From a virus, in the UHGV virus genome UHGV-0366079: a stretch of DNA of 8,355 bases. One strand, 5' to 3'. Shown here one piece after another: positions 6,644 through 6,961 of the stretch (the stretch's first letter is position 1; the number at the start of each line of letters is the position of its first letter). The notes below the pieces were generated by a model, which was not told the DNA's origin, made no database searches, and was given only the letters and a program-made list of their open reading frames with translations. A program made the translations under genes and the position numbers.

Positions 6644-6961
6644 TTAACCTTTGATCTCTGCGATGCCACCATCGGAAGAAACATTATAAGTTACACCTTC
6701 CCTACCCTCCATTGACCACGCACGGACATAGACAGGAATTTGAACTAATTTCCCAATGAAAGCATTCGCCTGGTTCATTAGACCTGCGTTAACGAGAGCC
6801 TGAGAAACTCGAATAATAATTTGATCCTGCTTTGTACCACCAAAACCATCAGGTATTTCAAGGCCAATACCAATTTCATTATAATAGCCCTGACCATTAA
6901 CTTTATTACGTTGGCGGGCTCCCAACATTTTACCCTTAACGAAAAGACCATAATTAGACAT
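6644..6961 (-). CDS. Gene-V-position protein, 105 aa; putative ssDNA-binding protein but divergent from Ff pV
   Basis: ATG 6961 with AAGGAAAG about 6 nt upstream, starting 11 nt after the gII stop and ending 2 nt before gVII. Basic N-terminus (KGKMLGARQRNK) and G.GYYNE motif only faintly recall M13 pV; longer than pV (87 aa). Confidence 0.55.
   Translation of the reverse strand: MSNYGLFVKGKMLGARQRNKVNGQGYYNEIGIGLEIPDGFGGTKQDQIIIRVSQALVNAGLMNQANAFIGKLVQIPVYVRAWSMEGREGVTYNVSSDGGIAEIKG

Follow-up and report, generated by a model that had tools for sequence, protein, structure and literature searches.

A PF17426 protein with a predicted SSB-like OB fold occupies the gene V slot of a UPΦ-type inovirus

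Which protein fills the gene V position in the virus genome UHGV-0366079, and how is it related to pV, the single-stranded DNA (ssDNA)-binding protein of the Ff phages? The stretch analyzed here, referred to as the window, comprises 8,355 nucleotides (nt) and carries on its minus strand an open reading frame (ORF) of 105 amino acids (aa) that runs from ATG to TAA (6644-6961). A preliminary description of the sequence had assigned this protein to the gene V slot, and its coordinates between gene II (gII) and gene VII (gVII) bear this out. It had further proposed that the ssDNA-binding module had been replaced or had strongly diverged amid structural and assembly proteins that are all clearly Ff-like. 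Based on the comparisons reported below, we consider it highly probable that the ORF is gene V (gV) of a UPΦ-type inovirus, that it encodes a member of Pfam family PF17426 predicted to be a small single-domain protein with an oligonucleotide/oligosaccharide-binding (OB) fold of the SSB type, and that this protein coats ssDNA in the manner of pV and was exchanged together with gII and its internal gene X (gX).

Judged by its sequence, gV is an ordinary member of a catalogued gene V family that includes gene V of phage I2-2. It matched PF17426 ("Putative_G5P") at E = 3.2e-51 and 172.4 bits (gathering cutoff 25), with residues 2-104 spanning model positions 1-108 and thus the full length, and it matched phrog_1547 of PHROG at E = 1e-51; NCBIfam held no model matching it. 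The best match among phage records was the I2-2 gene V product (40-41% identity over ~100 residues, 97% of the query), itself a PF17426 protein (88.6 bits) and a distant member of the family. A profile search retrieved 130 homologues, all of them PF17426 proteins, whose identity falls to ~23% while certain Gly and Trp positions remain invariant. The relatives come from Enterobacterales, Pasteurellaceae, Pseudomonas, Stutzerimonas and other hosts, and all of the 83 that were aligned scored as PF17426. Scanning with the single protein as query returned close relatives only. In an exhaustive search with a hidden Markov model (HMM) through 1.84 billion cluster representatives, 196 clusters (50% identity) were recovered at E <= 0.001. 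The same HMM search also returned several very long proteins (1300-4300 aa) that match profile positions ~25-60 in up to 21 stretches, and these are probably unrelated β-hairpin repeat proteins rather than gene V relatives. As the family is catalogued and the protein already bears a name in RefSeq through the Prokaryotic Genome Annotation Pipeline (PGAP; "DNA-binding protein", WP_000073833.1), gV is not an orphan, and the suitable annotation of the slot is "PF17426 / I2-2-type gene V protein".

The gene is tightly coupled to its neighbours. In the window, 11 nt separate the gII stop codon (TAA, 6975-6973) from the gV start, and only 2 nt lie between the end of gV and the ATG of gVII (6641). 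The same coupling is found in M13 and I2-2, where the gap between gII and gV measures 11 nt and 10 nt, respectively. An AGGAAAG motif in this gap would serve as the ribosome-binding site of gV. At least 1000 public contigs carry exactly this 105-aa sequence. A chance ORF or mis-annotation without any protein product, for which the small size alone might speak, was rejected as practically negligible in view of the Pfam match (E = 3e-51), the conservation of invariant Gly and Trp residues across the 130 homologues, the confidently predicted fold described below, the putative ribosome-binding site and the coupling to gII and gVII. A scan for promoters and terminators around gV gave no signal above background, and an Rfam search of the whole window gave no match.

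The little resemblance to Ff pV noted in the preliminary description proved to be genuine. In BLASTP, gV had no match to the gene V proteins of M13, IKe or If1 at E < 10. By hmmscan, gV matched neither PF02303, the family of Ff pV, nor PF17878 at E <= 1, and none of the 83 family members matched either model at E <= 10, while the M13 and IKe pV controls scored 144.5 and 82.9 bits against PF02303. Profile-profile alignment (hhalign) of the 83-sequence family with Ff/IKe pV returned a probability of 0.15% over 1 aligned column, the Ff profile being shallow (7 sequences). The preliminary description had conceded that a profile comparison might still expose an ordinary pV-family member, and as far as the Ff pV family is concerned these comparisons exposed none. 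At the level of sequence, gV therefore belongs to a different family (PF17426) than Ff pV (PF02303).

A sequence relationship to the SSB family did not emerge either. None of the 83 members matched Pfam PF00436 (SSB) at E <= 10, and hhalign against the OB domain of E. coli SSB gave a probability of 0.08%; in that alignment Trp82 of gV was paired with Trp88 of SSB within a short and not significant stretch, which counts as no more than a lead. Sequence searches of the PDB with the single protein and with the 83-sequence profile produced no meaningful match and no SSB. In phage If1, the annotated 'ss-DNA binding protein' (96 aa, If1 1-291) showed no BLASTP similarity to gV and had no Pfam match at E <= 1. 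Among enterobacterial inoviruses, the gene V slot is thus filled by at least three protein types that are unrelated in sequence.

An AlphaFold2 model built on the 83-sequence alignment reached a mean predicted local distance difference test score (pLDDT) of 91 and a predicted template modelling score (pTM) of 0.80. It contains five strands (β1 6-19, β2 26-37, β3 43-52, β4 72-84 and β5 87-94) and two helices (54-58 and 61-67), both between β3 and β4, and is thus a canonical OB fold in the order β1-β2-β3-helix-β4-β5. The structures nearest to the model were SSB, PriB and mitochondrial SSB (mtSSB). Among the best 50 Foldseek matches in the PDB nearly all were bacterial SSBs (E ~1e-5 to 2e-4), and in BFVD, which holds predicted viral structures, the best matches were SSBs of tailed phages, with the ssDNA-binding protein of the Thermus inovirus OH3 at rank 49. 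Structural alignments with SSBs showed 10-18% identity, and Ff pV was not among the 50-60 fold-search matches listed. The control, a model of a 99%-identical relative of M13 pV, was all-β, with two 3-residue helical turns as its only helical elements. The gV model accordingly places a helix between the β3 and β4 strands of an OB fold and can be superposed on SSB, and it departs from the all-β pV architecture, in which this helix is absent.

Conservation within the family is compatible with this prediction. Five glycines are conserved (Gly10, Gly14, Gly41, Gly86 and Gly89), residue 40 in the β2-β3 loop is always aromatic, and positions 51, 55 and 71 are conserved as basic. Strand β4 carries an aromatic residue at position 78 and, at its end before the β4-β5 turn, the family-invariant Trp82. 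Such a pattern would fit an ssDNA-binding face of the SSB type. The protein ends with ...GGIAEIKG at residue 105, just past the barrel, and has neither a linker nor an acidic C-terminal tip.

How could two dissimilar proteins come to share one slot? PF17426 and PF02303 might descend from a single ancestral gene V that drifted along with gII beyond sequence recognition, in which case nothing was recruited. Both occupy the same slot with the same 10-11 nt spacing to gII, the gII proteins of all these phages share their Pfam families with Ff gII, so that the whole cassette could be old and diverged, and both gene V proteins are small OB-type β-barrels. The hhalign probability of 0.15% (with 7 sequences in the Ff profile), the helical segment 54-67 that sets the topology apart from the all-β M13 control, and the closeness of the model to SSB, PriB and mtSSB with Ff pV missing from the matches listed all argue against this descent, which we regard as unlikely; moreover, it would bear on deep ancestry only and not on the recent history of the gene. 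The data thus lean towards PF17426 not being a diverged Ff pV, without proving it. Alternatively, and tentatively, PF17426 gV may be an independently recruited SSB/PriB-like OB domain in a portable gII-gX-gV cassette that moves between unrelated inoviruses (YpfΦ on the one hand, the IKe-like UPΦ and I2-2 on the other) and possibly onto non-phage replicons. If this were true, inoviruses would have solved ssDNA sequestration at least two times, or three times counting If1, and the handover to the packaging signal and any feedback on gII may differ from the Ff textbook model.

The recent history of gV is clearer, as identities to known phages are distributed in a mosaic. The window gII is 56% identical to that of I2-2 and about 22% identical to that of M13 (22-28% for the M13/IKe range, in partial matches), gV is 41% identical to I2-2 gV, and for the coat and assembly genes the identity to IKe/I2-2 is 50-73%. 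Compared with the Yersinia pestis phage YpfΦ, which is present in two tandem copies, gII reaches 86% and gV 94%, whereas the sole match among the other genes is gIV at 27%. This pattern indicates an exchange of modules rather than drift in place, and from the sequence comparisons the recent history of gV in UPΦ is clearly one of cassette exchange, which would also make gV look foreign beside IKe-like coat and assembly genes. A paper by Stassen et al. from 1992 (J Mol Evol 34:141), whose title points the same way, reportedly proposed an exchange of the replication module for I2-2. Of the two options offered in the preliminary description, replacement therefore holds in the form of module exchange, although it had been overlooked that gII and gX belong to the same module. 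The coat and assembly proteins, which it had called Ff-like, are nearest to IKe/I2-2 and not to Ff. Nor does the implied novelty stand, as the family is catalogued and Shapiro and Putonti (2020, Virus Evol, PMC7307601) already described genes II and V as a module common to YpfΦ and unlike IKe and M13, a pattern they attributed to recombination. The finding is in this respect ordinary and already known.

By analogy with its counterpart in Ff and from the predicted fold, gV is most likely a functional analogue of Ff pV, i.e. an ssDNA-coating protein. Ff pV forms dimers, is all-β and has a known operator on gII mRNA. In PMC9837838, thousands of gene V protein dimers are described for phage fd as coating newly made ssDNA, stopping further replication and readying the genome for assembly. 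In the window phage, gV would accumulate late in infection, coat the displaced plus-strand ssDNA arising from gII-driven rolling-circle replication and block its return to the double-stranded replicative form. The coated ssDNA would then be handed to the pI/pIV export machine, where pVIII would replace gV. Together, gII/gX and gV would form a single replication cassette exchanged by recombination among inoviruses that are unrelated in other respects; YpfΦ/CUSΦ contain the same cassette and I2-2 a more distant version. Binding of ssDNA, cooperativity, the oligomeric state and any translational feedback on gII are properties that we infer for gV, and a replication-to-packaging switch operated by a PF17426 protein, as assumed in the preliminary description, would be an extrapolation from Ff. 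Several points weigh against the assignment as a whole. Neither the literature nor PDB sequence searches yielded a published ssDNA-binding assay or a solved structure for PF17426, and no biochemical study of the I2-2, YpfΦ or UPΦ gene V protein was found in the literature. The family carries the word 'putative' in its Pfam name, the fold comes from prediction, and repression of gII translation by gV would be pure extrapolation from Ff. As gV has no acidic C-terminal tail like that of cellular SSBs, its interactions with partners must also differ.

Perhaps the OB protein serves another purpose, either as a PriB-type accessory factor in gII or minus-strand priming or as a regulator, with host SSB or another phage protein coating the ssDNA. 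In favour of such a role, a homologue in Pectobacterium lies beside a gII-like gene where inovirus coat genes were not detected. Within the window, on the other hand, there is no other candidate for ssDNA binding, the remaining ORFs being coat, assembly, rep and small accessory genes; the structural matches are mostly SSBs; and the position of the gene is strictly conserved in inoviruses of several bacterial orders. A different job for gV is accordingly quite improbable. The conserved position is seen in I2-2 and five phage records (saliva inoviruses, a Dulem virus, Pseudomonas phages 97-1 and 42-1 and a black-swan phage) and in three prophages (Haemophilus ducreyi, P. aeruginosa and the alphaproteobacterium Terasakiella), where the PF17426 gene consistently comes after the Phage_CRI/G2P_X_C rep gene and is itself followed by small coat genes, a DUF2523/pVI-like gene and Zot/pI. 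With this order conserved in all loci examined, PF17426 proteins are widespread as an alternative in the gene V slot.

The Pectobacterium homologue is encoded on a 5888-bp contig of P. brasiliense (1576-4512), where a gII-like gene (G2P_X_C, weak Phage_CRI) is paired with a PF17426 gene of 74% identity. Genes for a LuxR-type regulator and a TrbL/VirB6 protein come after the pair, a TIR-domain gene lies in the vicinity, and the coat and assembly proteins of the window had no match on this contig. Replicons that are not phages may therefore also carry the gII-gV pair.

The phage itself belongs to the UPΦ type of inoviruses, which integrate at dif, resemble IKe/I2-2 and infect Enterobacterales. 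Prophages in 47 complete E. coli genomes match the window at 98-99.6% identity across 100% of its length; the genomes include UM146 (99.3%), where the prophage lies next to hipBA in the dif region, and ECONIH2 (98.2%, 100% coverage); Salmonella carries a 7938-bp circular copy. Elements of this kind were described as "UPΦ" phages by Shapiro and Putonti, who named ECONIH2 as a host (PMC7307601). In a nucleotide search of phage records, a collection from which UPΦ is absent, only a 190-nt piece of gIV was matched, in IKe and PEar phages. A 96-100% identical copy extending from gII through gIV was also found on contig JARKOR010000214.1 of a 'Candidatus Nanosynbacter' metagenome-assembled genome; this is almost certainly a binning contaminant and not a phage of Saccharibacteria.

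Compared with known systems, UPΦ901 and the UPΦ prophages of E. coli, Salmonella, Klebsiella, Citrobacter and Yersinia enterocolitica are essentially the same phage as that of the window, sharing its gene order, dif-adjacent location, accessory ORFs and a gIII with GGGES repeats, with no substantive difference. The published description of UPΦ does not discuss the fold or the Pfam family of gene V (PMC7307601). I2-2 (Lineavirus I22) resembles the window in its gene V slot with PF17426, the type of gII partner, the in-frame gX and the IKe-like coat and assembly genes, but is non-integrating and has neither a dif site nor the accessory genes (PMC7307601). YpfΦ/CUSΦ of Y. pestis and extraintestinal pathogenic E. 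coli (ExPEC) share the replication cassette, whereas the remaining genes of YpfΦ, except gIV, are unrelated in sequence.

Ff and IKe pV (PF02303; structures 1VQB and 1GVP) resemble gV in slot, spacing, small size, OB-class β-barrel and a presumed role in coating ssDNA and in the passage from replication to packaging. Ff pV differs, however, in its length of 87 aa as opposed to 105 aa, in the lack of any sequence or profile similarity and in having no helical segment between β3 and β4, as judged by the M13 control model. The OB domain of bacterial and mitochondrial SSBs (PF00436; 1EYG, 6CQK and 8UZT) has the same fold with a β3-β4 helix as that predicted for gV, but it shows no match at the sequence level, and the Gly/Pro-rich linker and acidic C-terminal tip belong to SSB only.

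The gene, its family and the exchange of the module are already in databases and in print, and the discovery value is slight. The sole, small addition to known facts is the SSB-like fold predicted for gV. The Ff pV model should nevertheless not be assumed for medically relevant dif-integrating inoviruses such as UPΦ of uropathogenic E. coli and YpfΦ of Y. pestis, as the ssDNA-binding protein of phages of this type is predicted to be SSB-like.

The phage genes of the window are all encoded on the minus strand and follow the classical inovirus order, with gIII, gVI, gI and gIV further downstream of the features listed in Table 1. The open frame of gII reaches 8067, and its start is likely the GTG at 8025, which is preceded by GAGGA and is also used by PGAP (350 aa). 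PGAP names the gVII product 'tail virion protein G7P-2', and the ATG of gIX overlaps the gVII stop codon (TAATG). Downstream, gIII (4889-6295) was called mechanically as an ORF of 468 aa and by PGAP in UM146 as one of ~430 aa (1293 nt), the shorter form being consistent with a start at an internal MRRKILIL. At the N-terminus, gIII has a domain matching PF21443, the IKe-type pilus-binding domain, and its Gly/Ser-rich (GGGES)n linker corresponds to the variable region noted for UPΦ phages (PMC7307601).

Table 1 Features around gene V, with positions in the window.
Feature	Position	Strand	Characteristics
Gene VIII, major coat protein	6198..6440	-	Pfam Phage_coatGP8, 3e-19; 60% identity to IKe gVIII
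Gene IX	6460..6555	-	31 aa; phrog_28333 on residues 45-73 of a longer ORF
Gene VII, minor coat protein	6555..6641	-	28 aa; phrog_19107, E = 5e-10; 70% identity to IKe and I2-2 gVII
Gene V	6644..6961	-	105 aa; PF17426 (I2-2/YpfΦ-type); putative ssDNA-binding protein, predicted OB fold
Shine-Dalgarno-like AGGAAAG	6966..6972	-	Directly after the gII stop, 4 nt (TAAT) 5' of the gV ATG; read from the sequence
Gene X, in-frame start inside gII	6973..7287	-	ATG at 7287 preceded by GGGAG; aligns exactly with the annotated I2-2 gX start
Gene II, rolling-circle replication initiator	6973..8025	-	Pfam Phage_CRI, 9e-70; G2P_X_C, 2.5e-29; TIGR01629

Elsewhere in the window, an imperfect inverted repeat of ~100 nt (1316-1415) is formed by the arms 1316-1331/1400-1415 and 1333-1356/1369-1392. 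Its outer arms appear by eye to contain dif-like XerC/XerD half-sites, and the reverse complement of 1403-1413, GGTGCGCATAA, corresponds to the XerC arm of E. coli dif; a search for E. coli dif in the window gave no match within 3 mismatches. With its GC-rich hairpin in the centre, the arrangement resembles a folded ssDNA attP of the CTXφ style. Many Klebsiella plasmids contain unannotated stretches with 97% identity to positions 1310-1408. Five accessory ORFs flank the dif-like site (111-1315 on the plus strand and 1451-2110 on the minus strand), none with a significant Pfam family: a likely membrane protein of 142 aa, a zinc-ribbon protein of 91 aa (PGAP 'ECs_2282 family') and proteins of 159, 77 and 102 aa. 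In the circular copy from Salmonella, a Doc-type toxin gene takes the place of part of this region.

Opposite gII, a divergent ORF of 60 aa on the plus strand (8195-8355, continuing into 1-22) has no Pfam match and is annotated by PGAP in UM146 (WP_001335098.1). As it runs across the end of the window into its start, the window is a circular permutation, derived from the replicative form or a tandem prophage. Judged from its position, the ORF could encode a small repressor. Between it and gII lie four copies of TGAACT(C/A)(A/C) on the minus strand (8069-8147); this motif occurs 6 times in the whole window as opposed to 1.2 expected by chance, and the copies may be operator or origin repeats.
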